A stretch of 64,000 bases of DNA from a virus: IMG/VR virus record IMGVR_UViG_3300015360_000041, positions 2,900 to 66,899 of that record; one strand, written 5' to 3'. A program made the translations under genes and the position numbers. Below, one piece after another: positions 2,543 through 53,040 of the stretch. The notes beneath the pieces were generated by a model, which worked only from the letters and a program-made list of their open reading frames with translations, ran no database searches and had not been told where the DNA came from. The first letter of the stretch is position 1, and every line of letters starts with the position of its first letter.

Positions 2543-3439
2543 ATGGAATTTTACAAGAAACAACTATATAACGCGAATAAAGACCTAATATTCCTCATGA
2601 AACCGACATTTCTGATGAGAATCAACGAGAATGACACCACATTGGTGCCCAGGTTCTCTCTGAAGAACTCTGACGTCTTCGACGACTTTCCGGCAAACAC
2701 TCACGTGAAGTTCTCACAAGAGCTGATTGAGAAGGCCATACAATGGGGTATGATTATACAAATCGACTACAAGGGAGACGATGACGGACAGATGCAGGGA
2801 CACGAGAGAACGATATACCCGATGGTGATAGGAAAATCTAAGGATGACAAGTTCTTGATTAGAGGTTACCACCTTAACGGATGGTCTGTCAGCAATGGCG
2901 GAAACGTCGAGAAGGAATGGAGATTATTCAGAGCTGACAGGATTCTCAGTATGACTTTCACCGGTGCATTCTTTAGACTTGCCCCGGCAGGATACAACGA
3001 GACCGGAGATAAGGCGATGGCGAAGATAATTGCGCAAGCCGACTTCAACAAGATACGCAACAACCAACAGACGTTGTTACAGAAGAACCAGATCGACACT
3101 GTAGACCGGGTCATATTGAACAAGATTAAGGAGGTGGAAGTGAAAAATCTTAACTACAACCTGAAACTTATGAATCCGTGGGCCGGAAGCGTCATACCCA
3201 AGAAGGACTCTAAGAACATACGTATAACGTTCGCCAAGCCTGTAATAGGAAACGGACAGTGGGTAGCCCTGATAGGCACAAGCATAGAACCTAACAACAT
3301 ATTCAAACTGAAGGAAGACAACAGCATCATAGCGTCTTACAAGAGTGTGAAGTGGATAATGGCAGACGAACTGGACAAGTTGAACACGCTCGAACAGCAG
3401 GTGGAGTTCAAGACATACATGTTTTTAAAAGGTAAATAA
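2543..3439 (+). CDS. WYL-domain protein (no HTH)
   Basis: IQIDY...ERTIYP...WRLFRADRI pattern; AATATATAA motif just upstream. Confidence 0.65.
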   Translation: MEFYKKQLYNANKDLIFLMKPTFLMRINENDTTLVPRFSLKNSDVFDDFPANTHVKFSQELIEKAIQWGMIIQIDYKGDDDGQMQGHERTIYPMVIGKSKDDKFLIRGYHLNGWSVSNGGNVEKEWRLFRADRILSMTFTGAFFRLAPAGYNETGDKAMAKIIAQADFNKIRNNQQTLLQKNQIDTVDRVILNKIKEVEVKNLNYNLKLMNPWAGSVIPKKDSKNIRITFAKPVIGNGQWVALIGTSIEPNNIFKLKEDNSIIASYKSVKWIMADELDKLNTLEQQVEFKTYMFLKGK

Positions 3440-5120: not shown

Positions 5121-6461
5121 TTATTTCTTCAATCCCTTTATGAGCTTGTCGTTTGGTGATATTGCCCAGAATGTGTCCTTGTTTGCCATCTTGACAGTCA
5201 TGTCTATATGTGCGTTGGGACCAATCTCGCCAGAACGAAATACGCCGTCTTTCATGATGCAATCTATCAAACCGCCATCGAACATGCACTTTGTCAATTC
5301 TGCCCAGTCTTTGGCATCACAATTTGATAATCTGCACGCTTCCAATTTACTGTCGAATATTTTTGAATTGTATATGTGACCGCCGTTTATTTCTGTATCT
5401 ACGATATGACAGTCATATAGAGTACATTCCTTAATCCGACAGTTGACAAAATCAACACTTTTTAGATAATGTATGTTACTTATTAATGCGTCCACGACTT
5501 CCACCCTGTTAGTTGTTGAATTGTAATTTATAGTGGCATTCTTTATGCTGTCACATGACTTTATTATGTCGAACAGTTTGTTCTTTACCTTATCCCAAGA
5601 CGCTATAACTGCGTCATATTCCGGCACCTGGTCAATCTCTATGTTTATGCCGTCTATGTTCGCTAGGAAGTCGTCGTAAGTCTTGTACTGTTTAAACCAG
5701 TTGATGTTGTCCTCGAGATAGCTGAGCAGTTTTATATTGTCCTCGGGCAGTAACTCTTCTGTTATTGCTTTCCTTGTCTGCATTATGAAATAGTCCATAA
5801 GCGTTAATATGTCATCCGTTTTATTCTCGTAATCTGCTCCACCGATGTACCTGAATTCCAAATAGTTCATCCACATCTTCTGTATGTTTATACCGTAGTA
5901 TTTAGTATCATCTGGAATCTGTACACACTGTATAATGGAATTCAATGCGACCTCTGAGTCTTCCCAGTCTTCGAAAGGTACCACCCATTTGACTGAACGC
6001 GCGTATATATTGTTCCGACGTGATGGAAACTTATCGTATACAAAGTCTTCGTTGAAATTTAATATCAGTTTTATCGGATTCATCTGCTTGACATGCATGT
6101 CTGTGAACGATATGTTGATGTGCACAGAACAGTAATCGTTAGTGTAACCGTATTTCTTTATGAAGTTGAGTGCCTTGATCAATATGATTCTAGCATCGAC
6201 CCAGTTGATTGGCCCTGTTATGAGCTCAATCATCTCAGAACCTCCAGAGTAATCTGGTTCTATCTTGAACTTCTTATCAGTCACTGTGAAGTCAGAATGG
6301 TACTGGTTGAAACCCCATACTTCAATCGGCGAGAACTCTAAATTGATAAGTTCCATTGTCTTGATGTAAGAATGGTTCGAGAAGAATTCGAATTCGAAAC
6401 CCAACACTGCTGTCTGCAGGTCTTTCCAGTTATTTATAAATCTGTTATTGAACGTGTTCAT
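5121..6461 (-). CDS. amidoligase (COOH-NH2 ligase) family protein with C-terminal beta-helix-like repeats
   Basis: GFEFEF, D.S..ELITGP, CSVHINIS, KYYGIN, YLEFR motifs. Confidence 0.75.
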   Translation of the reverse strand: MNTFNNRFINNWKDLQTAVLGFEFEFFSNHSYIKTMELINLEFSPIEVWGFNQYHSDFTVTDKKFKIEPDYSGGSEMIELITGPINWVDARIILIKALNFIKKYGYTNDYCSVHINISFTDMHVKQMNPIKLILNFNEDFVYDKFPSRRNNIYARSVKWVVPFEDWEDSEVALNSIIQCVQIPDDTKYYGINIQKMWMNYLEFRYIGGADYENKTDDILTLMDYFIMQTRKAITEELLPEDNIKLLSYLEDNINWFKQYKTYDDFLANIDGINIEIDQVPEYDAVIASWDKVKNKLFDIIKSCDSIKNATINYNSTTNRVEVVDALISNIHYLKSVDFVNCRIKECTLYDCHIVDTEINGGHIYNSKIFDSKLEACRLSNCDAKDWAELTKCMFDGGLIDCIMKDGVFRSGEIGPNAHIDMTVKMANKDTFWAISPNDKLIKGLKK

Positions 6462-38760: not shown

Positions 38761-39026
38761 TGAACAAGATAACATCAATAAATTACGAGAACTTCTACGA
38801 CAATCTTGAGTGCAAGATATTAGAGACATACGGTTACACTAATATGTTGACGGCATACCCAGAATATGTAAGCAAACACGGACTGGACGCATTGGAATAC
38901 GACGCTAAATCTCTCGACAAGGTAAGACTGCTCAAAAATGAAACGCTCACACTCGACACTTACATGATATGTGCATACCTGCGCGACATCGAGAACGAGA
39001 TAACAAGGGTGTTAAATAATATTTAG
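38760..39026 (+). CDS. hypothetical protein
   Basis: Coupled to DHFR (TAATG). Confidence 0.55.
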   Translation: MNKITSINYENFYDNLECKILETYGYTNMLTAYPEYVSKHGLDALEYDAKSLDKVRLLKNETLTLDTYMICAYLRDIENEITRVLNNI

Positions 39027-39116
39027 TACAAGTTTGTGCGGAATATATACAACACAGTTTTTTAAAAAATATATGCCCAATAGGTTAGGCGCGCAACATA
39101 TAATAAACCAAAAAAC

Positions 39117-39473
39117 ATGGCAAAACAAGAAAAATCTATAGACCTTAGAAAAGAAAAGACCGACGAATTTTCTGACACGGTAAATCCTGTGCCCGCAGAT
39201 GCTATGCATTCTGCGTTAGCCGTGCAGAACGCGCTGATTGACGAGACCCGAGTGCCCAAGAAACTGCCAGCACTAAAGCAAGGCGAGAAGCAGATTTGCG
39301 TAATAATATACCTGAAGCTGATAAACGGCGATGATGATTTCGTTGAGACATTGACGTTGAACATGGTTTCACAGATCAACGCCGTGATATGTAATACGAA
39401 CAAGCACACCAAGACGCCGGGCGGGTACACCGTTAATAAAGTTAAATTAAACACCGAAATAATATGCAGATAA
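39117..39473 (+). CDS. hypothetical protein
   Basis: A-rich leader, 118 aa. Confidence 0.55.
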   Translation: MAKQEKSIDLRKEKTDEFSDTVNPVPADAMHSALAVQNALIDETRVPKKLPALKQGEKQICVIIYLKLINGDDDFVETLTLNMVSQINAVICNTNKHTKTPGGYTVNKVKLNTEIICR

Positions 39474-39709
39474 AAATGAACGAGATTTATGTCAATTTAG
39501 ATATTTGTGAATGTCATGAGATATTCGATAAACACTCATACTGTAGTGCCGAGTCATGTATAACGGCCGGTGTGACCGAAATACTTTATGACCAGGAGTC
39601 CGGTGATATATTGGCGACAGTACAAAATGGCGAATTCCTCACGCTAGACGAGAAATATACGAGCGAAAATATAAAAACTTTCACGAATATTTCCGAATTA
39701 CGAAAATAA
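39464..39709 (+). CDS. hypothetical protein
   Basis: Overlaps the previous stop. Confidence 0.5.
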   Translation: MQIKMNEIYVNLDICECHEIFDKHSYCSAESCITAGVTEILYDQESGDILATVQNGEFLTLDEKYTSENIKTFTNISELRK

Positions 39710-39713
39710 TTCG

Positions 39714-39721
39714 TATATTTG
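39714..39721 (+). promoter_or_regulatory. Bacteroidota-type -7 promoter element TATATTTG upstream of the tRNA leader
   Basis: Matches TAnnTTTG; also at 45370; an AATATATAA motif follows at 39761. Confidence 0.6.
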
Positions 39722-39774
39722 CGTTATGATCTAAAAACAGATTAAACTTTTTTACTATATAATATATAATTAAT

Positions 39775-39861
39775 ATGAAAACAACTAGCAATATATCACG
39801 CCGCTCGAGTTCGTCAAGACGAAGCGGATATGTATTGCCTGGATGTGGACGTATGAAGTAA
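39775..39861 (+). CDS. Ser/Arg-rich leader peptide (28 aa) of a putative attenuator
   Basis: MKTTSNISRRSSSSRRSGYVLPGCGRMK*; 10 consecutive Ser/Arg codons; lies between the promoter motifs and the terminator preceding Ser/Arg tRNAs. Confidence 0.8.
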   Translation: MKTTSNISRRSSSSRRSGYVLPGCGRMK

Positions 39862-39888
39862 TTAGAAATACTATCATTTGTTTTTTTT

Positions 39889-39917
39889 AAACCCAGGCCG
39901 AAACGTCTGGGTTTTTT
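39889..39917 (+). terminator. attenuator terminator upstream of the tRNA cluster
   Basis: AAACCCAGGC-CGAAAC-GTCTGGGTTT then TTT; its 5' arm is complementary to GCCTGG (39837-39842) in the leader ORF. Confidence 0.85.
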
Positions 39918-39975
39918 ATTTTATAGCAGTTTACATGAGCAACGTTCTGAAAATTAAAAATTGGAGCTCGACATT

Positions 39976-40065
39976 GGAAGGTGTAGCAGTCTCATGGAGA
40001 GGCGATTAGTTTTGAAAACTAAACAGCGGGTAATGCCGCTCGGGGGTCGGGTCCTCCACTTTCCG
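39976..40065 (+). tRNA. tRNA-Ser(UGA)
   Basis: GGAAGGT/ACTTTCC acceptor, TTAGT-TTTGAAA-ACTAA anticodon arm, long variable arm, G73; atypical T-loop; no encoded CCA. Confidence 0.85.
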
Positions 40066-40084
40066 CAGTGAACATGATTGTAAT

Positions 40085-40157
40085 GCAGACATGGTGTAAG
40101 TGGAAACACGTTGGGATTCTAACCCAAAGACTCTGAGTTCGAATCTTGGTGTCTGCG
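40085..40157 (+). tRNA. tRNA-Arg(UCU)
   Basis: GCAGACA/TGTCTGC acceptor, TTGGG-ATTCTAA-CCCAA, GTTCGAATC. Confidence 0.9.
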
Positions 40158-40196
40158 CAAGATTTTCGTATTAGATTACAAATACGATTGAGTAAT

Positions 40197-40282
40197 GGAA
40201 AAGCCAACTGTTGGGGAAACAGACTTGCCTGCTAAGCAACGTGTCCGGGAAACCGGATTGGGGTCGGAACCCAGGTTTTCCG
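40197..40282 (+). tRNA. tRNA-Ser(GCU)
   Basis: GGAAAA/TTTTCC acceptor, TTGC-CTGCTAA-GCAA, TCCGG-GAAA-CCGGA variable arm, G73. Confidence 0.85.
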
Positions 40283-40291
40283 CGTGAATAT

Positions 40292-40362
40292 GTGTCTATA
40301 GTTTAATGGAAGAACGGAAGAATACGAATCTTTTGGTCTGGGTTCGAATCCTAGTTGACACA
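40292..40362 (+). tRNA. tRNA-Arg(ACG)
   Basis: GTGTC/GACAC acceptor, GAAGA-ATACGAA-TCTTT, GGTTCGAATCC. Confidence 0.88.
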
Positions 40363-40377
40363 CAATAAAACATAAAA

Positions 40378-40803
40378 CTAATTAACGTTACCTAACGAAT
40401 TACTATCAATCTTCACTGAATTTATTTGTGTCGGATTCACATTCCCCTGTAATTTTACCTTGTCTCGTGTTACGGCATCATTGACGTTTTTAAAATCCGG
40501 CACCGTAGATTTTGTAACTTCCGGGTTAACATTGTCGTCGGACAATTTCTCTAATTTTATCTTAGTTTCATCGGTCACATTCAAATTCGATGGCTCTAAT
40601 TTCTCTGTTTTTTTTACAACGGCGTTCAAATTATCTTTTTCCAACTTCGATTTCGTTGATTTAGAACTTGCCGTGTTTAAAGTCTCGTTCTTGAGTTTCT
40701 TTTTTTCTGCAGGTTTATCACTAATATTGCTGTCGTCCAACACAGATTTGCGTATTTTTGATTGGTCGTCCTTATTAAGGTTTGAGTTAATTTTGTTTGT
40801 CAT
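40378..40803 (-). CDS. hypothetical low-complexity Lys/Asn/Ser-rich protein
   Basis: AATATATAA motif upstream on the minus strand. Confidence 0.5.
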   Translation of the reverse strand: MTNKINSNLNKDDQSKIRKSVLDDSNISDKPAEKKKLKNETLNTASSKSTKSKLEKDNLNAVVKKTEKLEPSNLNVTDETKIKLEKLSDDNVNPEVTKSTVPDFKNVNDAVTRDKVKLQGNVNPTQINSVKIDSNSLGNVN

Positions 40804-40856
40804 TAAACTTTTCGGTTATTATTTACAATAATGTTATATATTAAAATTATACCATT

Positions 40857-41873
40857 ATGAGGTTATATATAACGGAATCGTCCGTACAGACGATGACATC
40901 ATTCTTCAAATATTCCGATATTGAGATAGTCAACAATCCGCAGACGTATTTCATGCGTAACAAACAGCATTTCAACTTCGACGCTGTCCTGATACTGGAC
41001 GGAACCCCCGGAAACGATGCTACACTGAACATGGCCAGGCTTGCAGGCGTGCCGGTCTATGGCATACACAGGTACGACAAGACCGAACAGTCGGTCATGA
41101 TGAGCGCGGCGAGCATCAACATGCCAGACACGTGGTTCTCGGGGTACCTGAATAATTGCAACGATTTCGTGTCGTTGATGAAAGACGTCAAAGACGATGA
41201 ACGAGTGATAATAAAATACAGCCTCGGCGCGAGGGGTTTCGGTCAGATACTGCTGACTAAACGCGAGCTGATCGACTTGTTCGACAGCGACGACGATGTA
41301 TTAGTCAGATTGCTCGGCGAATCGTATTCGAAAGCACACTGCACGGACGAAGGTTTGGAGCAAACGACGGCAAAGAAACTGTCGGAGACAGATAAGCAAC
41401 TCGAGAAATTCAAGAATATCAAGATAAATAAACACGACTGTCTCTTGAGCGCCATAAGACGCCGTAATGATTTAATAGTGCAGAGATACATACCGAACAG
41501 AGTCGAGTGGCGGATGCTCTGGTTTTACGACCAATTTCCAATCCTGGTGAGACGGAATTTCGACGACGGTACTTGGCAAGCCAATGCGTGCAATAACACG
41601 TCTGGGTCGTCCACTGTCGTCGATATGCGAGAATTGAAGGACTATGCCATAGACTACGAAAAGATCGACGGGTTTTTCAGTGAGATGAATGCGCCGTTCA
41701 TGAGCGTGGACATATATTACGATACAGACACTCACCAATGGGGGCTATTCGAGTTCCAGATGGAATTCGGGTGGACCAACACTGTGGGCATGGACTCGAG
41801 TTCTCTCAGTGTCAAGATGACAGAGGCTGTACATTCCATAACTAACAAACAAAAGCACACTCTCGCAGTATAA
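40857..41873 (+). CDS. ATP-grasp fold protein (RimK-like)
   Basis: IIKYSLGARGFGQ, VQRYI...EWR, WQAN, MSVDI, LFEFQ. Confidence 0.7.
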   Translation: MRLYITESSVQTMTSFFKYSDIEIVNNPQTYFMRNKQHFNFDAVLILDGTPGNDATLNMARLAGVPVYGIHRYDKTEQSVMMSAASINMPDTWFSGYLNNCNDFVSLMKDVKDDERVIIKYSLGARGFGQILLTKRELIDLFDSDDDVLVRLLGESYSKAHCTDEGLEQTTAKKLSETDKQLEKFKNIKINKHDCLLSAIRRRNDLIVQRYIPNRVEWRMLWFYDQFPILVRRNFDDGTWQANACNNTSGSSTVVDMRELKDYAIDYEKIDGFFSEMNAPFMSVDIYYDTDTHQWGLFEFQMEFGWTNTVGMDSSSLSVKMTEAVHSITNKQKHTLAV

Positions 41874-44407: not shown

Positions 44408-45319
44408 ATGGCGAAAGGTCACATAACATTACACAATACTATCATCACTGTAAATAACAGGGAGATATATAATTTATACATGCAGGAAATAAGACATTTC
44501 AGTAAATTGACGAGGGATGAAGAGTTTGAATATTTCAGGCAGTTGCGAGCAGGTAATACGAAAATGCACAACGAACTGATAAGTCGAAATTTATTATTTG
44601 TGATTTCTGTCGCAAAACAATATCAGGGATTGGCGCACGGCGCGTTGACGCTAGAAGACCTGATAGCCGAAGGAAATGTCGGCCTATGCCTGGCTATAGA
44701 CAGATATGACTATACTAAGGGTCACAAGTTTATTTCCTATGCAGTATTCTGGATTAAGCACGCGATTTTGGGTTGTCTTAGAGATAATATCAAAAACATA
44801 AGGGTTCCACAAAACAGACAAGCGATATTACACAAGCTAAACCAGCTCGAGAGAGAGATGGAGCAGCAACAAGATTATCACATCGACGTGACTACATTAG
44901 CACTGCGTGCTGTAGAACTAGGATTACTTAGCGAACAAGATGCCGTATCAAATTTGTCGCGATTGAAAAATGATTGTGTAGACACTCGGTCATTTTCAAA
45001 ACCGATAAACAACCATAGCACTGGCGAAGAACTGACATTATTGGACGTTCTCACAGATGACAATTCTTTAGCGCCTGACGCGAGACTGCATGATGTAGAT
45101 ATGAAGAGCGGTATTCAGGTTATGTTAAATACATTACCAGAGCATGTCAAATGCATGATTGAGCTATACCACGGAATTAACACGTACAAGTCTTTGAACT
45201 ATAAACAGATTGGTATGGTGTGCGATTTAACGTCCGAGAGAATCAGACAGCTTATAAACAAATATACGCGCAAGCTCTCTCGTAATTTCAGTGAAGAAAA
45301 AGAATACATGATGACATAA
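44408..45319 (+). CDS. sigma-70 family RNA polymerase sigma factor (RpoD/Bacteroidota primary-like)
   Basis: NLLFVISVAKQYQ, DLIAEGNVGL, KFISYAVFWI, region 4 LTSERIRQ. Confidence 0.92.
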   Translation: MAKGHITLHNTIITVNNREIYNLYMQEIRHFSKLTRDEEFEYFRQLRAGNTKMHNELISRNLLFVISVAKQYQGLAHGALTLEDLIAEGNVGLCLAIDRYDYTKGHKFISYAVFWIKHAILGCLRDNIKNIRVPQNRQAILHKLNQLEREMEQQQDYHIDVTTLALRAVELGLLSEQDAVSNLSRLKNDCVDTRSFSKPINNHSTGEELTLLDVLTDDNSLAPDARLHDVDMKSGIQVMLNTLPEHVKCMIELYHGINTYKSLNYKQIGMVCDLTSERIRQLINKYTRKLSRNFSEEKEYMMT

Positions 45320-45381: not shown

Positions 45382-45978
45382 ATGAAGACTGCATACATCC
45401 TAAGAGGAATACCAGGTTGCGGCAAATCGTCTCTGTCGGACGAGTTGCATTCAAACGCATCGATGACGGGCAGAACCGCATTAATTTGCAGTTCTGATGA
45501 TTTCTTCATGGACCACGATGGTAAATACAACTGGGATTTTGACAAACTCGGTCACGCACATATGTGGTGTAAGCAAGAGTTTAAGAACGGTATTGCCGAA
45601 GGCATAGACGTGGTAATTGTCTCTAACACGAACATACACACGTCCGACGTCAAGGCATACCACGACGTCGCCAAGGACGGCGGATACATGGTATTCGTTT
45701 TGACCGTCGAAAACTGGCACGACGGTACGGACATACACGATGTGGCGATAGAAGTGAAACTCGCCATGTCTGACACTCTCAGACAGAATATCAAAGGGTT
45801 CGCGATGCCAATGGTCGACGTGAAAGGCACCATGAAACCCAAGTACAAACGCAACAAAGACACAAACCTCTACGAGGTCTTCGACTACACAAAACAAGAA
45901 GTTGCCAGGGCGAGACGTGTGTACACGGCAGAAGAGATTGAAGAGTTGAAACGGTTGTCAAAAAAAACAAATAAATAA
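45382..45978 (+). CDS. P-loop kinase (AAA_33 / polynucleotide-kinase-like)
   Basis: ILRGIPGCGKS, SSDDFF, AHMWC, VIVSNTN, IHDV. Confidence 0.8.
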   Translation: MKTAYILRGIPGCGKSSLSDELHSNASMTGRTALICSSDDFFMDHDGKYNWDFDKLGHAHMWCKQEFKNGIAEGIDVVIVSNTNIHTSDVKAYHDVAKDGGYMVFVLTVENWHDGTDIHDVAIEVKLAMSDTLRQNIKGFAMPMVDVKGTMKPKYKRNKDTNLYEVFDYTKQEVARARRVYTAEEIEELKRLSKKTNK

Positions 45979-45982
45979 ATAT

Positions 45983-46597
45983 ATGAAAACAATTTCCAAA
46001 TTTATCCGGTACTGGGTGTACATAATCTATTACTACACCACGATCTGTTTCAGTTACGTGAAACACTACAGAGAACCTAAATTACGTTACTTTTACAAGG
46101 CACGACTTTTCGCGTTGACTACACACCACAACGTGAGACAGAGTTACGACGGTTACCCGTACTTCTATCACATCGACATGGTCATGAAGTTTGCGCTGAA
46201 GTTCTCGCACATCATGGACAACAACATCAACGTCGTCATCGGTGCCATATTCCACGACTTGATAGAGGACTGCAGGCTGACTTACAACGACGTCAAAGAT
46301 GAATGGGGAGTGGAAGTCGCTGACATAGTCTTCGCGTGTACCGAACTGCGCGGCAAGAACCGGGAAGAGAGACACGGTAAAGAGTACTATGATTTACTAC
46401 AGACCACGGAAGAGGGTTCGTTCGTCAAGATTTGCGACGTTATCGCTAACATGACACAGGGCACGAATACAGGTTCTGGCATGTTGAAGAAATATCGTGT
46501 CGGTTATGCGAAATTTAAAGTGCTGTTGTACAGAGACAAGTTCAAAGAGATGTTCGATTATATCGAATCAAACTTACTGGAAGACAAGAAAACATAA
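45983..46597 (+). CDS. HD-domain (p)ppGpp hydrolase-like protein (MESH1/SpoT type)
   Basis: H..Q...PYFYH, FHDLIED, VKICDVIAN. Confidence 0.8.
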   Translation: MKTISKFIRYWVYIIYYYTTICFSYVKHYREPKLRYFYKARLFALTTHHNVRQSYDGYPYFYHIDMVMKFALKFSHIMDNNINVVIGAIFHDLIEDCRLTYNDVKDEWGVEVADIVFACTELRGKNREERHGKEYYDLLQTTEEGSFVKICDVIANMTQGTNTGSGMLKKYRVGYAKFKVLLYRDKFKEMFDYIESNLLEDKKT

Positions 46598-46609
46598 AAA
46601 CATAAAAAC

Positions 46610-46861
46610 ATGATTTGGTCAGTAATTAAATTAATATTCGCATTATCACATATTGTTAGTGCAACCGTATGTAACGCTATAACTTGGACTGTATATTTCG
46701 GATGGGACAGAGACATATATCAAATGTATTGGACCGACAAGAAAACGAACATACAGTACACTTACCGCATTAATGCGTTTGCATGGGCGTTCAGAGTAAA
46801 ACGTCTAGCAGATTCAGCATTCGACATAACTAACAACCAGCACGTGACCGATAAAAAATAG
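46610..46861 (+). CDS. hypothetical membrane protein
   Basis: Hydrophobic N-terminus. Confidence 0.45.
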   Translation: MIWSVIKLIFALSHIVSATVCNAITWTVYFGWDRDIYQMYWTDKKTNIQYTYRINAFAWAFRVKRLADSAFDITNNQHVTDKK

Positions 46862-46979
46862 TCTCACTTTAATGTTGTATAATTATTTTAAATCATATGC
46901 ATAACAAAGAACGACTTGAAGAAGATTTTACTGGGCACAGATATGAACAGAATTAAACTAAAACCACGTGTATAACATT

Positions 46980-47600
46980 ATGAAGAAAACTGAGATATTA
47001 ATCGTCGGCATCACGGGACTTATGGGTTCTGGTAAAAGCCACATAAGTCATATATTTGGAGAATGCGGCGCGATCATATACAACACTGATATAGTGTCAA
47101 GAGCCGTACAGATGAAGAACCAGGACTTGAAAACAAAACTCGTTGAAAAGTTTGGCGAAAAGTATTATGACGGGAAATTAATCAACGTCGAATATGCCAA
47201 ATCGCTGCTGTATGCAGGGACGCCGGAGTCTACGGAAAATCTGGAGTGGGTAACAACAGTCGTTGGCGAGTGTGTCAGACAGAATCTGTCAGAATACAAG
47301 AAGTCATTGGAAGACGCGGGCATCGAGAACTACATTCTCGTCGAATCTGCGATATTGTTCGAGACCGGTCTTGATAAGCACTGTGATTTAATAATCGGCG
47401 TTAAATCAACTAGCCCCATAGTCGCGACATACGGAAGGGATTACACGACCAAAGAGGAGTGGAAGATACGCATGGCGACGCAACTACCTGAATGTGATAA
47501 AAAATACGATTTCGTCATAGGCAACGAGTACAACAACGCTGTGGAAGCCAAGGTGCGAAAGGTTCACGAAGAAATAATGGAAAAATATTTCACAGATTAA
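46980..47600 (+). CDS. coaE: dephospho-CoA kinase
   Basis: VGITGLMGSGKS, YNTD, VESAILFE, RMATQL, DFVI.N. Confidence 0.85.
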   Translation: MKKTEILIVGITGLMGSGKSHISHIFGECGAIIYNTDIVSRAVQMKNQDLKTKLVEKFGEKYYDGKLINVEYAKSLLYAGTPESTENLEWVTTVVGECVRQNLSEYKKSLEDAGIENYILVESAILFETGLDKHCDLIIGVKSTSPIVATYGRDYTTKEEWKIRMATQLPECDKKYDFVIGNEYNNAVEAKVRKVHEEIMEKYFTD

Positions 47601-47623
47601 AATATTATTGCTATATTTACATC

Positions 47624-48142
47624 ATGAAAACTATTTTTTATCATACAACAGGTACACGGTTCAAAATCGGAGATGTCATCGGTGGTCCGGGCAAGATAGT
47701 TTTCCTGCACACGAACCCAGTTCCACACGGAACGATACAGTCGATAGTCGCGGGCGGTTTCGCGTCGCACTCCAGTTATAATGCAGCAAGCAATAAAGCC
47801 TGGAATGATTATCAAATCGCTAAAATTGAATTCGATAAGACGAAAATCGGCGAAGCCCCAGTGTGTCCGTCAGATATATCGAACCCCAAACCCGTACCGC
47901 TTTTCGTGTACGAGATGAAACCTTACAACAAACCTGTATTCGGCAGCTGTAACGACGAGTATATCGTGTTCGACGATTTCGTCGAGGTCGTGCGCGTCGT
48001 TGGAAACGCAAAAGGCATACTGGACAACTTCAAGCAAAAATTTGGCGACGGTGCCAAGGCTTACCATTTCGGAGGCAAGGCGCGCAAGCCTAAGGGTCAC
48101 GGCAAGGTAAGAACAAACTCAAATTACTCAAATGAATACTAA
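47624..48142 (+). CDS. hypothetical protein, possible Arr-like ADP-ribosyltransferase fold
   Basis: FYHTT..FKIGDVI.GPG and VYEMKP weakly recall Arr. Confidence 0.3.
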   Translation: MKTIFYHTTGTRFKIGDVIGGPGKIVFLHTNPVPHGTIQSIVAGGFASHSSYNAASNKAWNDYQIAKIEFDKTKIGEAPVCPSDISNPKPVPLFVYEMKPYNKPVFGSCNDEYIVFDDFVEVVRVVGNAKGILDNFKQKFGDGAKAYHFGGKARKPKGHGKVRTNSNYSNEY

Positions 48143-48374
48143 AGAAATACAGATCGGCGATGTCATAGAGATGTTCAACTGTACCGGGTCTTCGGACAGG
48201 GCGACAGAGCGTACTTATATCATAGACCGCGTGACTAAGACGTTGGCAAAAAGCGGCGAAATGCGATTCAATAGAGTGGCAGAACAGTGGCAAAAAGACG
48301 GAGAATATCTTGTCAAACACGTCGACGAAAGACGATGGTCTGTAAATGGACACAGATTACTAAAAACTGAGTAG
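48132..48374 (+). CDS. hypothetical protein
   Basis: Overlapping co-oriented ORF. Confidence 0.5.
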   Translation: MNTKEIQIGDVIEMFNCTGSSDRATERTYIIDRVTKTLAKSGEMRFNRVAEQWQKDGEYLVKHVDERRWSVNGHRLLKTE

Positions 48375-49184
48375 ATGAACATACACTTCACAGACAAGGG
48401 ATTATTCGATAATCTCAAGAACGCGACTCTCGCGAAAGTGAGGGTCGGTTCTCATTTATACGGAACCAACACTGAGAAATCGGATGAAGATTTTTTGTAC
48501 ATCTACGCGACGTCTGAAAACGAGCTCAAGTCCTTCGTGTGGACCAACCACCAGCTGCAGTACAAGGAAGAAGGCGTCGACCACAATTTCGTGTCGCTGC
48601 ACACGTTCGTCAGGAACATCATAAACGGCGACAGTACCATAAACTTCGAGGTCGTACATTCGGAGGAGCTGAAGAACACGTTATTGGGTTTCATGCACGT
48701 GTACAGAGACTATTTCAACACGTACACTATAATCAGGAGCTATAACGGCTTCGCGAGACGCGACTGCAAGCACTTCACGAAGGCGACGACGCCATACGAG
48801 AAACGCAAGCGGTTCGGGCACATAGTCAGGGGATACGTATATGCAAAGCTGTTGATGAACAGGGAATTCAAATTCAATATCGCGAACTACGCCTTTGTGA
48901 AGGTGTTAGATGAGATTATTGCGGAAGACGGAGATATAACAATGAACCACATCAATAAGTTCAAGGTTTTGCTGGACGAACAGCGCAAGGAACTGAACGC
49001 GATGCTTGAACTCAAATCTGTCAAAATGGCGAAGATGATGGATGTCACAGACGCGACCGATATGGAAGTGTCCATGAGGTTGGTCCAAGACACGGCCGAG
49101 TTCAAGGGCAAACAGAGACGGTTGAAAGATTTCGACATGACAATATTTATTAACGCTTTTGAAAATTGGGTCAGCTATGATTAG
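48375..49184 (+). CDS. Pol-beta superfamily nucleotidyltransferase (RlaP-like)
   Basis: VGSHLYGTNTEKSDED. Confidence 0.8.
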   Translation: MNIHFTDKGLFDNLKNATLAKVRVGSHLYGTNTEKSDEDFLYIYATSENELKSFVWTNHQLQYKEEGVDHNFVSLHTFVRNIINGDSTINFEVVHSEELKNTLLGFMHVYRDYFNTYTIIRSYNGFARRDCKHFTKATTPYEKRKRFGHIVRGYVYAKLLMNREFKFNIANYAFVKVLDEIIAEDGDITMNHINKFKVLLDEQRKELNAMLELKSVKMAKMMDVTDATDMEVSMRLVQDTAEFKGKQRRLKDFDMTIFINAFENWVSYD

Positions 49185-49905
49185 ATACCAGATATTCGGT
49201 TCCGCGTCGTCGGTAGATTACGACGTGCTTGTTTTTGTCGATTCTCTTGGGACCATACAGGAGAACCACGATACAGTACACCACTATAATGACGAGCTCG
49301 TAAAATTGTTTGCAGAACTGAAAATGCCAGAGAAGAAGATGAATGCGAATCTCGGAGTGCTGGAAGACGGAATTGTCGTGAAGGTTTTCAAGGGTTATCC
49401 TTTCGAGGTGAACAACTCTTTGTTCACCACATACGGGTATCACAGACAAACTATTGACAACCAGGTGACTCGCATGTACGAGTTGACTGACGACATAAAA
49501 CACTACAAGTTGAAACGTTGTTTCAGGTTCCTTTTGAGCTTTTATTCGAGAGTCCCGGAATGGCGCAAAGACATAAAACTGGCACTGATGGGAGACCTAG
49601 TGAAGAGGACTGATTGCGTCGCAAAGATAAATCTGTTCACGCACAAGGACTTTCCCGGAAAGAAGGATTCCGTGGCGGACATATACAAGACGTTCGCGTT
49701 CCAGTTGGCACAGACGTACCTGCTGATAAGGGACATAGAAGCATACTCGAAAGAGGACGTCATAAAACATCTACCGAAATTGGAGGGCTCTCTGATGCGC
49801 AAGGAAACAGGCATAACCGAGATGTCTATGATGCACGGACTGTTGAACTCGCTCATAGAATACTCGAGGGGCGAAATGAAACACATGAAATCGCTGGAAG
49901 AATAA
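49177..49905 (+). CDS. putative nucleotidyltransferase
   Basis: IFGSASSVDYDV (GS...DxD); ATG at 49177. Confidence 0.6.
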   Translation: MIRYQIFGSASSVDYDVLVFVDSLGTIQENHDTVHHYNDELVKLFAELKMPEKKMNANLGVLEDGIVVKVFKGYPFEVNNSLFTTYGYHRQTIDNQVTRMYELTDDIKHYKLKRCFRFLLSFYSRVPEWRKDIKLALMGDLVKRTDCVAKINLFTHKDFPGKKDSVADIYKTFAFQLAQTYLLIRDIEAYSKEDVIKHLPKLEGSLMRKETGITEMSMMHGLLNSLIEYSRGEMKHMKSLEE

Positions 49906-49943
49906 AATAACGAAAGTCTTGGTTACCAAGACTTTCGTTATTT
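49905..49943. terminator. long hairpin / terminator
   Basis: AAATAACGAAAGTCTTGG-TTA-CCAAGACTTTCGTTATTT. Confidence 0.75.
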
Positions 49944-50121
49944 ACGTGAAAATAATTTTTTTATTAAGAATATTATTGTTATATTTACAGTATGGAATAT
50001 GAATCTGATTTAATACGAAAGATTAATGGGATCAAGAACACAAGAAGATTAACATAGGACAACATGACGAGTTCATGGAAAAGTACAAGAATGTATTATT
50101 AACCATAAAAACAACATTAAT

Positions 50122-50727
50122 ATGAACGTAATGAAGAACCCGGTATTGAGTAAGATGTACGCACATTGCGGACTGACGCTTAGCGAGAAAGGCTTACAAT
50201 TCTACATGAAAGACAACCCAGGTTATAATATTTTGATAACCACTGACCATGTGAGAATTGCGGAAATCATGGGGTTCAATTACCAGGAATTAGAAGATGC
50301 GAAGGAATATCATGATTTCTTCGAATTGCTTTTGGTAAATCAGTTCTTCAGACCCAGCAGATTTGCCGTGGATACCACGGACGGTGTTGTGAAGATGTTT
50401 GCGTCTCTGGCGGAATATTTGACTGAGAACCCGATCTACAAGGGATACACTTCAAGACAGGTCACGGACATGTTCCAGCCTTTGAATGAATTTGATTTCG
50501 AGACTCGTTACAAGCGTTTGCACGAATTGTACGATAATGCAAAGCACATAAAGAATAAGTTCAACGGTGGGACCGTATTGCGTTTCAGACCCGATTACGA
50601 CAAGCGTAACCTGGAAGCCGGATTCGACAAGTTCAACAACGGGCATTTCGCAACGATTGTAGAACGACTCGAGTTCATATACAGCCACACTGAAGAAGAG
50701 ATAGCGGAATTATTCGTAAAACTTTAA
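50122..50727 (+). CDS. hypothetical protein (resembles the C-terminal part of phage PolX-like nucleotidyltransferases)
   Basis: CGLTLSEKGL...ITTD..RIAEIMGF pattern; no catalytic N-terminus seen. Confidence 0.4.
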   Translation: MNVMKNPVLSKMYAHCGLTLSEKGLQFYMKDNPGYNILITTDHVRIAEIMGFNYQELEDAKEYHDFFELLLVNQFFRPSRFAVDTTDGVVKMFASLAEYLTENPIYKGYTSRQVTDMFQPLNEFDFETRYKRLHELYDNAKHIKNKFNGGTVLRFRPDYDKRNLEAGFDKFNNGHFATIVERLEFIYSHTEEEIAELFVKL

Positions 50728-50730
50728 GAC

Positions 50731-51081
50731 ATGATAAGGACAAGGAAATTGATAGGAAAGGCGCAGCTGTTCGATTACCTAGGACAGCCTGAAATCTCTA
50801 AGATTGAGATTAATACGTGTAAACAGAAGACTCTCAAAAATAAGGAGATATGTTCCATATACATTTATCACAGAATCAACTGGGCAGACATTTGTTCGGT
50901 CATCGGCAGGTGTGAGGCCGCAAAATTGGAAGACCTCGGTGCCGACGAATCGTATAAAGAATTCGTCACCAATTTTTGTTCTTGTAAGCGCGATGGTTTC
51001 GTGACTGCGAGTAATATAAATAAATTGGTGGAGATCGAAAAAAAAAACAGGGTATCATTTCAACATATCAAAACAAATTAA
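50731..51081 (+). CDS. hypothetical protein
   Basis: Co-oriented ORF. Confidence 0.5.
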   Translation: MIRTRKLIGKAQLFDYLGQPEISKIEINTCKQKTLKNKEICSIYIYHRINWADICSVIGRCEAAKLEDLGADESYKEFVTNFCSCKRDGFVTASNINKLVEIEKKNRVSFQHIKTN

Positions 51082-51087
51082 GAATTT

Positions 51088-51456
51088 ATGCAAGCAGACA
51101 GAACAATAGTTATAGCAGATATAAAACCGTTTGGTAATCTCGAGTCCATGCTTAATACATTAGACGAAGAGATTAAACTGTGCGAGGCTGAGGGTTATAC
51201 GAAAGAGGTCGCACGTCTATGTCGCCTGTTGTCTGAGTTCGGGTTATTAGCCCCCGGCAGTTGGTTCGACGAGATGGATGGCGAAGATGACAGACCTGAA
51301 GTCGAGATGGTCGTATTGTACTCGAGAAGCCTTTTGATACGCTTGAACAACATCGCACAGAAGGACCTGAACGGGTTCACAATGAAACCAACAGCTGAGC
51401 AGATGATGGATGACCAGGATTTGATGAAACATTTCAAGAACGTAACTTTTAAATAA
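51088..51456 (+). CDS. hypothetical protein
   Basis: Co-oriented ORF. Confidence 0.55.
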   Translation: MQADRTIVIADIKPFGNLESMLNTLDEEIKLCEAEGYTKEVARLCRLLSEFGLLAPGSWFDEMDGEDDRPEVEMVVLYSRSLLIRLNNIAQKDLNGFTMKPTAEQMMDDQDLMKHFKNVTFK

Positions 51457-51472
51457 ATAAAAATAAAACGAC

Positions 51473-52561
51473 ATGCAATTAGAGATACAAACATTACTCA
51501 GGGCACACGGACTTCAACACGTGCAAGATTTGCTTAAACTTGAGGTAAAGCGTAAGGACGACCTGGTGTTATTGAAATACAATACCATAGAGGCAGACTG
51601 GACGAAATCCGCGCTGTACGACTGCCGTGGCATCATACTGGACAGTGCCGACGACTGGAATGTCGTTGCGTATCCGTACCGCAAATTCTTCAACGTGCAA
51701 GAAGGTTATGCTGCCAAAATAGACTGGTCAAATTCGGTCGTGTTCGAGAAAGAGGACGGCTCATTGATAACGTTATGGTATCACAGGGGCGAGTGGAGAC
51801 TGTCCACGTCAGGCACCATCGACGCGGACACGACGTCGAACGGTGCGGAGTACACTTTCGCAGAACTCGTGTGGAACACAGCCGCGCTGATGTACGGCTC
51901 GAAGGAGTCGTTCCTAGCGAGACTGAACACAAAGCACAACTACATGTTCGAGCTTTGTACGCCGTGGAACATCGTGGTCACACAACACCAGACTTCTAAA
52001 TTGGTCCTTCACGGTGTGAGAGACATGAGCACTTATAAGGAATTACACATACACGATTTTGACCTAGTACAAGTCAAGGTGCACGACCTTAAAAACGAGG
52101 CTGAGATATGCGCGACATTTGCCGGAAAGTCCTGGCAGGAAGAGGGCTATATAGTTATGGACAAGACGACCATGGAACGCGTCAAGATCAAAAACCCGGC
52201 ATATGTTTCAGTTCACCACGTCAAGACAGGCGTGTCGCCGTATGAAATCGTGAATGTCATAAAGACGAACGAGATTTCTGAGTTCTGTGTGTACTTCAAG
52301 GAACGCACAGAGTTCATACTGAGACTGGACGAAGAGTGGGTGAAGCTTGAGAATATGCTCAATTCAAAATGGAAACACGTATTGAACGAGGGCCGATTCG
52401 AGACGCAGAAAGATTTCGCTATAACAATGATGAAGGAAGTCGAGAGACCGTTTCACAGCGTCATGTTCAACATGAAGAGTGGAAAGATTGACAATATCCG
52501 TGCTGGCATGTGCGCGCTAGATACCAAGTTCTTGTATTTCTACTTACAACCGGAAAAGTAA
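51473..52561 (+). CDS. RNA ligase (T4 Rnl1-like)
   Basis: CRGII, KFFN, EKEDGS (motif I), MFEL, EGYIV, KIKN..Y. Confidence 0.9.
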   Translation: MQLEIQTLLRAHGLQHVQDLLKLEVKRKDDLVLLKYNTIEADWTKSALYDCRGIILDSADDWNVVAYPYRKFFNVQEGYAAKIDWSNSVVFEKEDGSLITLWYHRGEWRLSTSGTIDADTTSNGAEYTFAELVWNTAALMYGSKESFLARLNTKHNYMFELCTPWNIVVTQHQTSKLVLHGVRDMSTYKELHIHDFDLVQVKVHDLKNEAEICATFAGKSWQEEGYIVMDKTTMERVKIKNPAYVSVHHVKTGVSPYEIVNVIKTNEISEFCVYFKERTEFILRLDEEWVKLENMLNSKWKHVLNEGRFETQKDFAITMMKEVERPFHSVMFNMKSGKIDNIRAGMCALDTKFLYFYLQPEK

Positions 52562-53040
52562 TGGACTACGGCAGATTCATAATATTCCTGGACGTCGACG
52601 GCGTGTTGTGTTCTTACGACGAGAACATATACACGCCTGACGCGAAGGACATGTACGACGTGGACGAAGAACACTTCTTCAAGTCTGATGCGATAGACGC
52701 GCTCAATGCTATAATAGAGCATTACGACGCCGACCTGTGCATGATTTCATCGTGGAACGGCAAGTTCAAAGACGAAGCCCACTACAAGGCGTTCCTTGTC
52801 CGACGCGGCGTGATTGTGAACAACTTGTATTTCGGAAACAAACACGACAGAGCGAATTACGTCATTGAGAATATAGACAACGGTATGACCGATTACATCA
52901 TAATAGACGACGAGGCAAACCAGTACTATAAACGCATCGACAAGATTGCGTACTCGCGCATACTGAAGACTGACCGCAACAGGTGTCTTGATAAGTATGA
53001 CGCGAAATTTGTAACGATTAATCTGAAATTAAAAAAATAA
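52561..53040 (+). CDS. HAD phosphatase (RNA-repair-associated type)
   Basis: FLDVDGVL, ISSW, YIIIDD; coupled to the RNA ligase by TAATG. Confidence 0.8.
   Translation: MDYGRFIIFLDVDGVLCSYDENIYTPDAKDMYDVDEEHFFKSDAIDALNAIIEHYDADLCMISSWNGKFKDEAHYKAFLVRRGVIVNNLYFGNKHDRANYVIENIDNGMTDYIIIDDEANQYYKRIDKIAYSRILKTDRNRCLDKYDAKFVTINLKLKK

Follow-up and report, generated by a model that had tools for sequence, protein, structure and literature searches.

The locus described here raises the question of why a group of phage transfer RNA (tRNA) genes should lie behind an intrinsic terminator, and why a short open reading frame (ORF) crowded with serine and arginine codons should precede that terminator when every one of the tRNAs is for serine or arginine. 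The locus lies in a 64,000-nucleotide stretch of viral DNA (positions 2,900 to 66,899 of IMG/VR record IMGVR_UViG_3300015360_000041), which we call the window and whose coordinates are used throughout. Our answer, held at a probability of roughly 0.7 and judged from sequence and predicted RNA folding, is that the ORF and terminator act together as a transcription attenuator of the ribosome-mediated (leader-peptide) kind, which governs whether RNA polymerase reads through into the phage Ser/Arg tRNA genes. A first-pass annotation of the window had put this reading forward. It is now supported by three independent lines of evidence: the layout of a distantly related locus, a predicted ribosome-dependent switch in both loci, and covariation between leader composition and downstream tRNAs in phage loci. 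The window is part of a viral contig of 66,899 bases with one leader-terminator unit and four tRNAs, and this size does not support the label "jumbo phage" that the phage had been given.

A Ser/Arg-rich leader and terminator before four tRNA genes

The elements occupy 670 bases in which neither strand has a long ORF. This stretch is bounded on one side by an 81-codon ORF that ends at 39709 and on the other by a convergent ORF on the minus strand (40378-40803). All are on one strand, in the order motif, leader ORF, hairpin with T tract, and tRNA genes:

39761-39769, + strand: promoter-like motif AATATATAA, 5 nt 5' of the leader ATG
39775-39861, + strand: leader ORF of 28 codons, MKTTSNISRRSSSSRRSGYVLPGCGRMK and a stop codon; the control codons are codons 5-17 (39787-39825)
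39781-39846, + strand: hairpin A (the "1:2" element), -21.0 kcal/mol, from the minimum free energy fold; its 5' strand is codons 3-11 and its 3' strand contains GCCTGG
39837-39842, + strand: putative antiterminator strand GCCTGG (region 2), predicted to pair with 39893-39898 when the A site is at codons 2-16 and masked from codon 18
39847-39883, + strand: predicted hairpin B, which contains the stop codon and around which the antiterminator helix closes; -6.6 kcal/mol by itself, -15.2 kcal/mol when that helix is included
39889-39920, + strand: intrinsic terminator of 10 bp, -14.0 kcal/mol; 5' arm 39889-39898 (CCAGGC at 39893-39898), 6-nt loop 39899-39904, 3' arm 39905-39914, then the T tract
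39976-40066, + strand: tRNA-Ser(UGA), class II, with an unusual D arm and a 6-nt T loop; called by ARAGORN only with -ps80, covariation in 10 of 26 pairs
40085-40158, + strand: tRNA-Arg(UCU), called by ARAGORN at default; 58.4 bits with the Rfam tRNA model
40198-40283, + strand: tRNA-Ser(GCU), class II, with a 4-bp T stem; called by ARAGORN only with -ps80, two compensatory T-stem changes (contigs X3 and X4)
40292-40363, + strand: tRNA-Arg(ACG), called by ARAGORN at default; 58.6 bits with the Rfam tRNA model

The tRNA genes thus follow the terminator in the order Ser(UGA), Arg(UCU), Ser(GCU), Arg(ACG), and they are the only tRNA genes of the window. The first-pass annotation had described this arrangement of ORF, terminator and four Ser/Arg tRNA genes, and all of its parts were located, including the 10-bp hairpin (39889-39914) with its T tract.

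The leader is exceptional for its composition. Its codons 5-17 read AGC AAT ATA TCA CGC CGC TCG AGT TCG TCA AGA CGA AGC, so that 11 of 13 are for Ser or Arg. Among the 72,573 stop-free 13-codon windows in the six frames of the 64-kb window, this is the only one with 11, and among 671 short ATG ORFs the leader ranks first for Ser/Arg, the runner-up having 8. Ser and Arg together make up 9.8% of codons across 50 long ORFs of the phage. No longer ORF overlaps the leader on either strand. The Ser/Arg-rich ORF of the first-pass annotation is therefore a real outlier.

Under standard wobble rules, the four downstream anticodons between them suffice to read each Ser or Arg codon in the leader. It had also been pointed out that TCT, TCC, CGG and AGG are missing from the leader. 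They are indeed missing, but this is weak evidence. TCT and TCC account for 33% of the Ser codons of the phage, and finding them at none of the seven leader Ser codons has p ~0.06. AGG is readable by anticodon UCU. In addition, TCT is used in the leader of the related locus described next. We therefore rejected codon-level exclusivity as evidence.

An alignment of homologues of a 338-amino-acid protein encoded next to the tRNA unit led to a 6,903-base contig from JGI metagenomes (L035), whose homologue of that protein is 33% identical. Upstream of the neighbour-protein gene, this contig carries Ser(tga), Arg(tct), Arg(acg) and Ser(gct). These are preceded in turn by TATATAA, 5 nt, the ATG of the ORF MKTVNNILSSRSRRSNYNSIDELS with its stop codon, and a 13-bp terminator (3158-3186). 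The L035 leader contains SSRSRRS, and the N-terminal MKT..NI is common to the two leaders. The tRNA sequences, tRNA order and leader nucleotides differ between the loci, and the design and both amino acids are kept. Only ~14 nt separate the L035 T tract from the first tRNA, which leaves no room for a separate promoter, so the L035 tRNAs must be transcribed through the terminator. On the strength of this layout, we rejected the possibility that the terminator serves only an upstream operon. Directly upstream of the L035 leader lies a gene (1664-2794) for a nucleotidyltransferase of the PolyA_pol family (CCA-adding type).

Ribosome position, terminator pairing and leader-tRNA matching

The leader RNAs of both loci fold better than their shuffled versions, with z scores of -3.97 for the window and -4.90 for L035 (0 of 200 shuffles as good in each case). 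In the predicted fold of the window, hairpin A sequesters the antiterminator strand when the early codons are free of a ribosome. We modelled the switch by ending the transcript just before the terminator 3' arm and placing a ribosome at different positions on the leader. With no ribosome, the terminator 5' arm was paired with upstream RNA at 0.26. With the A site at codons 2-16, GCCUGG paired with CCAGGC around hairpin B and capture of the 5' arm rose to 0.66. From codon 18 on, the ribosome covered GCCUGG and 5' arm pairing fell to 0.02-0.2. L035 behaved in the same way with other nucleotides: capture was 0.18 with no ribosome, 0.67 while the control codons occupied the A site, and 0.08-0.15 afterwards. 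A switch of at least the observed size appeared in 4 of 300 dinucleotide shuffles of the window leader and in 2 of 300 for L035. The pairing of GCCTGG with CCAGGC, and the difference expected between folds with and without ribosome masking, are thus reproduced in these ribosome-constrained models.

If leaders of this kind report on the tRNAs behind them, then leader composition should follow the tRNA set from locus to locus. The sample consisted of 34 loci fetched by a tRNA-Ser 16-mer, which involves no leader feature, together with L035 and the window. A unit was defined as a hairpin with a T tract no farther than 100 nt upstream of a tRNA, accompanied by an ATG ORF of 10-60 codons that ends near the hairpin. 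This fixed rule gave 16 terminator-before-tRNA units, 14 with a candidate ORF. The window unit was added by hand, its first tRNA being below the ARAGORN default. From the 15 units with a candidate ORF we dropped L028:2896, whose "terminator" lies inside a tRNA gene, and members of leader families already represented: L022:2101 and L033:10956 (the family of L012:10823), and L012:11719 and L025:2588 (the family of L022:3160). Ten non-redundant units remained, window included, and each was scored by the best count of residues of its own tRNA set in any 10-residue window of the leader.

Own-set matches summed to 67, compared with 38.5 ± 5.7 for permuted pairings, a value reached by 1 of 100,000 permutations. 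When tRNA sets were ranked within each of the ten units, the own set came first in seven, second in two and seventh in one. For example, an ORF beginning MRQSLLFSYCWLSPKG precedes Phe, Tyr, Ser, Trp, Cys, Leu and Leu tRNAs, and the ORF MRRVQQNWFNCDFDFNQDTGG precedes Asp, Cys, Phe, Asn and Gln tRNAs. Matched compositions recur with differing sets of residues (FSYCWL, QNFCD, TIMGAV). The proposal that leader codons vary together with downstream anticodons therefore holds at the level of amino-acid composition. Folding of the nine other units showed, in every one, capture of the terminator 5' arm while the ribosome had its A site at early codons and release of the arm directly afterwards.

One further ORF looks like a matched leader left uncounted. 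In L014, the ORF MRSKRKYKQVIRRR (~5388-5433) ends 21 nt before tRNA-Lys (5454), ahead of Lys(ttt), Arg(tct) and Glu(ttc), and has no terminator by the unit rule.

Start context, tRNA genes and relatives of the locus

Promoter motifs had been noted upstream of the leader in the first pass. A scan for the sigma-70 consensus found no + strand site before the leader or before the tRNAs, and promoter-like sites numbered 7, compared with 8.5 ± 2.7 in shuffles; we rejected this consensus as the leader promoter. What stands of the claim is a different motif. AATATATAA, at 39761-39769, occurs 14 times in the window, 8-fold above the 1.73 ± 1.31 copies expected from shuffles, and none of 100 shuffles reached 14. 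Copies precede the start codons of long ORFs at 2543, 25441 and 58463 by 3-5 nt, stand before further ATGs as well, and often come just past a terminator. The 5-nt gap between the motif and the leader ATG resembles that before long ORFs, so the leader has the start context of real phage genes. The sites include 2531, 7055, 25428, 36970, 39761 and 58450, and the spacing to the start codon is sometimes 17-31 nt. We infer that AATATATAA is a phage promoter element giving leaderless or nearly leaderless transcripts. A gene for a sigma-70-family protein (Sigma70_r2 and Sigma70_r4) is present at 44408-45319 on the + strand, and its product may read these promoters.

The leader has no Shine-Dalgarno sequence. 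This is normal for the phage, because none of 51 long ORFs of the window has a Shine-Dalgarno word (GGAG, GAGG or AGGA) at -20 to -4, against a background of 7.5%. Absence of the Shine-Dalgarno sequence is usual for Bacteroidota and their phages, and the count of 0 of 51 fits a host of that type.

The tRNA genes differed in how easily they were recognized. The two Arg genes are the only ones called by Rfam and by ARAGORN at its default setting; both Ser genes fall short of default thresholds. The -ps80 setting that finds the Ser genes gives 28 calls in the 66.9-kb contig compared with 2 at default, so its calls alone prove little. For Ser(UGA), a 16-mer of the T arm had exact matches in 34 IMG/VR stretches, 15 of which align to the gene. 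At default, ARAGORN recognizes the corresponding tRNA-Ser(tga) in 5 of these 15 copies and misses 10. An alignment of nine genes gave a cloverleaf in which pairing is kept by two-sided change in 10 of 26 pairs. For Ser(GCU), the X3 and X4 contigs described below have two compensated T-stem changes (T>A at 40259 with A>T at 40273, and G>A at 40262 with C>T at 40270), both pairs being kept. On these grounds we accepted all four tRNA genes that had been annotated and rejected the possibility that the Ser genes are dead pseudogenes. Because standard tools missed the two Ser tRNAs, units of this kind are likely under-annotated.

The Ser(UGA) genes form a phage family with a common T arm GGGGGTCGGGTCCTCC (6-nt T loop) and an odd D arm, found at 39976-40066 of the window and in L004, L005, L006, L011, L017, L019, L020, L027, L030 and L031. 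In X4, changes of G>T and G>A at 40263 and 40267 make the Ser(GCU) T loop read like a standard one; the window version is the derived one. None of the tRNA genes of the window encodes the CCA end.

Two closer relatives cover the leader region. X3, a contig of a sediment run, covers 39689-39981 with 34 substitutions relative to the window, and X4, a contig of a sludge run, covers 39689-39975 with 26. Of the 26 X4 substitutions, the 21 that are listed (at most 5 others exist) fall into two clusters, 11 in 39722-39751 and 10 in 39840-39889, with none in 39752-39839. By simple arithmetic, an even spread of these 21 would leave those 88 of 287 bases untouched with a chance of ~0.0005. The tail of the leader is not kept in X4: Cys24 is changed to Ser, Arg26 to His and Met27 to Lys, and one base inserted behind 39856 shifts the frame. 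The X4 terminator is altered by insertions on both arms, which by reading of the sequence appear to keep a hairpin. Beyond 39975, X4 continues with sequence like the L035 tRNA-Ser. X3 carries 975 nt where the window has 214 nt, between positions 39981 and 40196 (start of Ser(UGA) to Ser(GCU)), and its loose end looks like another tRNA; the content of the tRNA cluster therefore varies between close relatives.

The 338-amino-acid protein (40857-41873, + strand) is conserved and adjoins the tRNA unit both here and in L035 (3896-4951). It had no match in Pfam or PHROG, and a homologue is named an ATP-grasp, RimK-type ligase by one source. Its relatives P0002-P0010 are 37-71% identical. Other searches around the locus gave little. 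Blastn of 39000-41000 against GenBank phages returned only tRNA-Arg fragments in unrelated phages, and a tblastn search of phages with the neighbour protein had no match. No related loci were found in viral contigs with single neighbour proteins as queries, nor with the neighbour-protein alignment in viral contigs or in genome contigs. A degenerate pattern of the motif and leader start had five matches in viral contigs, all in unrelated ORFs without nearby tRNAs, and a 24-mer from the leader core had none.

Proposed attenuation, its alternatives and its meaning

In the mechanism that we propose, the AATATATAA element would start transcription at the leader ATG or slightly upstream of it, and a ribosome would translate the 28-codon leader. 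When Ser and Arg codons are decoded fast, the ribosome would move past codon 17 and either cover GCCUGG or let hairpin A re-form behind it; the terminator (39889-39914) would then form, and most transcripts would end before the tRNAs. A shortage of charged Ser or Arg tRNA would make the ribosome linger on codons 5-17, and hairpin A would open. The freed GCCUGG would pair with CCAGGC of the terminator 5' arm before the 3' arm is made, in what is presumed to be a kinetic competition, and RNA polymerase would proceed into Ser(UGA)-Arg(UCU)-Ser(GCU)-Arg(ACG). The tRNA product would relieve the signal that called for it, giving negative feedback on tRNA supply.

The attenuator interpretation of the first-pass annotation thus survives in its central parts, the codon-matched leader and the choice between antiterminator and terminator by ribosome position, and loses the argument from codon exclusivity. 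Several observations weigh against it. The antiterminator helix of the window is only 6 bp long. The terminator state (-14.0 plus -6.6 kcal/mol) is better than the antiterminator module (-15.2 kcal/mol) by ~5 kcal/mol, and equilibrium folds of the full-length RNA keep the terminator formed (0.93-0.96) at every ribosome position. Because the terminator is favoured at equilibrium, the switch works only if the earlier-made helix wins kinetically, as in trp. The relatives X3 and X4 have in common a T>C change at 39840, inside GCCTGG, and there is no matching change at 39895 among the X3 and X4 differences listed (20 further differences lie outside the list). In five of the nine other units, the 5' arm is more than half captured with no ribosome at all (0.58-0.9), so the "1:2" element is not universal. 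One rule-based unit, L005:2321, shows no match between leader and tRNAs, and two units (L004:130 and L014:3117) have no ATG ORF and so went unscored. The 60-nt spacer of the window (39915-39975) could house an unrecognized promoter, and if transcription began 3' of the leader ATG, the leader would go untranslated. Finally, the sensor would also fire on amino-acid starvation, when extra tRNA does not help.

Of the other explanations, the one that survives best, itself unlikely, is a stand-alone small gene or small RNA with no coupling to the tRNAs. A transcript of ~140 nt would provide a basic Ser/Arg micropeptide or act as a small RNA, and the tRNAs would be expressed by constitutive leak through the terminator or from their own promoter. 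Motif, ORF and strong terminator do make a self-contained unit, and the 60-nt spacer before the first tRNA would suit a second promoter, but in L035 this distance shrinks to ~14 nt. The N-terminal MKT..NI common to window and L035 could point to a conserved peptide, whereas the C-terminal codons change and shift frame in X4, and a peptide function leaves unexplained the tRNA-matched peptides with differing sets (FSYCWL, QNFCD, TIMGAV). The strong structure of the leader RNA (z -3.97) would suit this explanation, yet few shuffles show capture of the terminator arm that depends on the ribosome.

Less probable still is a translated leader coupled to tRNA output by another route, such as access of Rho, processing by RNase or stability of the precursor, possibly with inverse logic. 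Such a route would accommodate the equilibrium weakness of the 6-bp antiterminator, the T>C change at 39840 with no compensation among the differences listed, and the lack of a clear "1:2" element in five of nine other units. It would not account for a canonical hairpin with T tract at the same place in every unit, nor for the coincidence of an early-codon ribosome with 5' arm capture in all nine other units, and inverse logic would cut tRNA supply just when tRNA is short.

A chance ORF in the spacer, with the terminator ending the upstream operon (genes to 39709) and a Ser/Arg run arising incidentally from a G+C-rich hairpin, is very improbable and was rejected: CG-rich hairpin sequence does tend to read Ser, Arg or Ala in some frames, and relaxed tRNA calls are unspecific, but the leader is one window in 72,573, the permutation result is 1 in 100,000, L035 has the same design in different nucleotides, and a promoter-like motif stands 5 nt before the ATG in both loci.

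The attenuator that we favour resembles well-known systems in mechanism and differs from them in target. Attenuation by leader peptides is a textbook mechanism, known from genes of amino-acid biosynthesis and from synthetase genes. The leaders of enterobacterial amino-acid operons include trpL, hisL, leuL and pheL and the multivalent thrL and ilvL. Like them, the locus has a run of control codons within a short ORF, a set of sequester, antiterminator and terminator hairpins that exclude one another, and a terminator before the genes that would be regulated. As in those operons, the antiterminator is less stable than the terminator and can prevail only through its earlier synthesis, and as in thrL and ilvL, two amino acids would be read at once. 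In contrast to them, the regulated genes here are tRNAs rather than biosynthetic enzymes, so that the product would be the molecule sensed. The element is also of phage origin and lacks a Shine-Dalgarno sequence; a promoter-like motif stands 5 nt before its ATG, which makes a leaderless transcript probable. A cmscan search of 39000-41000 with Rfam models at E up to 1 gave two tRNA hits and three at chance level, with no Trp, His, Thr or Leu leader family.

Two systems come closer in what they control or sense. The pheM leader attenuator controls the pheST operon for phenylalanyl-tRNA synthetase. It too is a leader-peptide attenuator of a translation-apparatus gene that responds to decoding of cognate codons, but it belongs to the host, its target is a synthetase and it senses one amino acid. 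T-box riboswitches bind uncharged tRNA directly without translation and control synthetase or amino-acid genes. They also sense tRNA status and switch between antiterminator and terminator, whereas sensing here would be by an ORF and a ribosome; the T-box model had no match in 39000-41000 at E up to 1. In the titles and abstract openings returned by full-text searching, we found no account of leader-peptide attenuation of tRNA genes. The mechanism is classical, and within the literature covered in this way, tRNA genes as its target and the resulting closed loop appear not to have been described.

What might such a switch be for? In other phages, T4 Pnk and Rnl1 offset PrrC, and the tRNAs of T5 offset tRNA-targeting systems. 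The phage described here likewise carries tRNAs, and 5-13 kb away (45382-53040) it has an RNA-repair set: an AAA_33 kinase, an HD domain, an RlaP nucleotidyltransferase, an Rnl1-family RNA ligase and a HAD_SAK_2 phosphatase. It differs from T4 and T5 in that its tRNA genes sit behind a codon-matched conditional terminator; no sensor is known to switch on tRNAs of the T4/T5 type. The RNA-repair genes and the PolyA_pol gene of L035 fit a phage that invests in upkeep of tRNA, and do not demonstrate a host nuclease as the trigger.

A two-tier counter-defence can be imagined, and we regard it as doubtful. A host anticodon nuclease or other depletion of tRNA would stall leader ribosomes and bring on replacement tRNAs, while the Rnl1 ligase, kinase, HAD phosphatase and nucleotidyltransferase would repair cut tRNAs in parallel. 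In such a scheme, the unusual D and T arms of the phage tRNAs may let them escape the nuclease. Plain supply-and-demand feedback on tRNA explains the same facts. If the counter-defence were real, codon-matched leaders, widespread in Bacteroidota phages, would amount to a general system of surveillance of the tRNA pool.

The tRNA genes here appear to be controlled by the logic of attenuation, which would give phages a self-adjusting supply of tRNA. It would help explain how phage tRNA clusters are split into blocks, and the content of a block would be readable from its leader sequence. It would also provide a testable link between phage tRNAs and depletion of host tRNA, whether by codon-usage mismatch, host shut-off or tRNA-cutting defences. 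The leaders themselves would be compact natural sensors of decoding speed for chosen codons.

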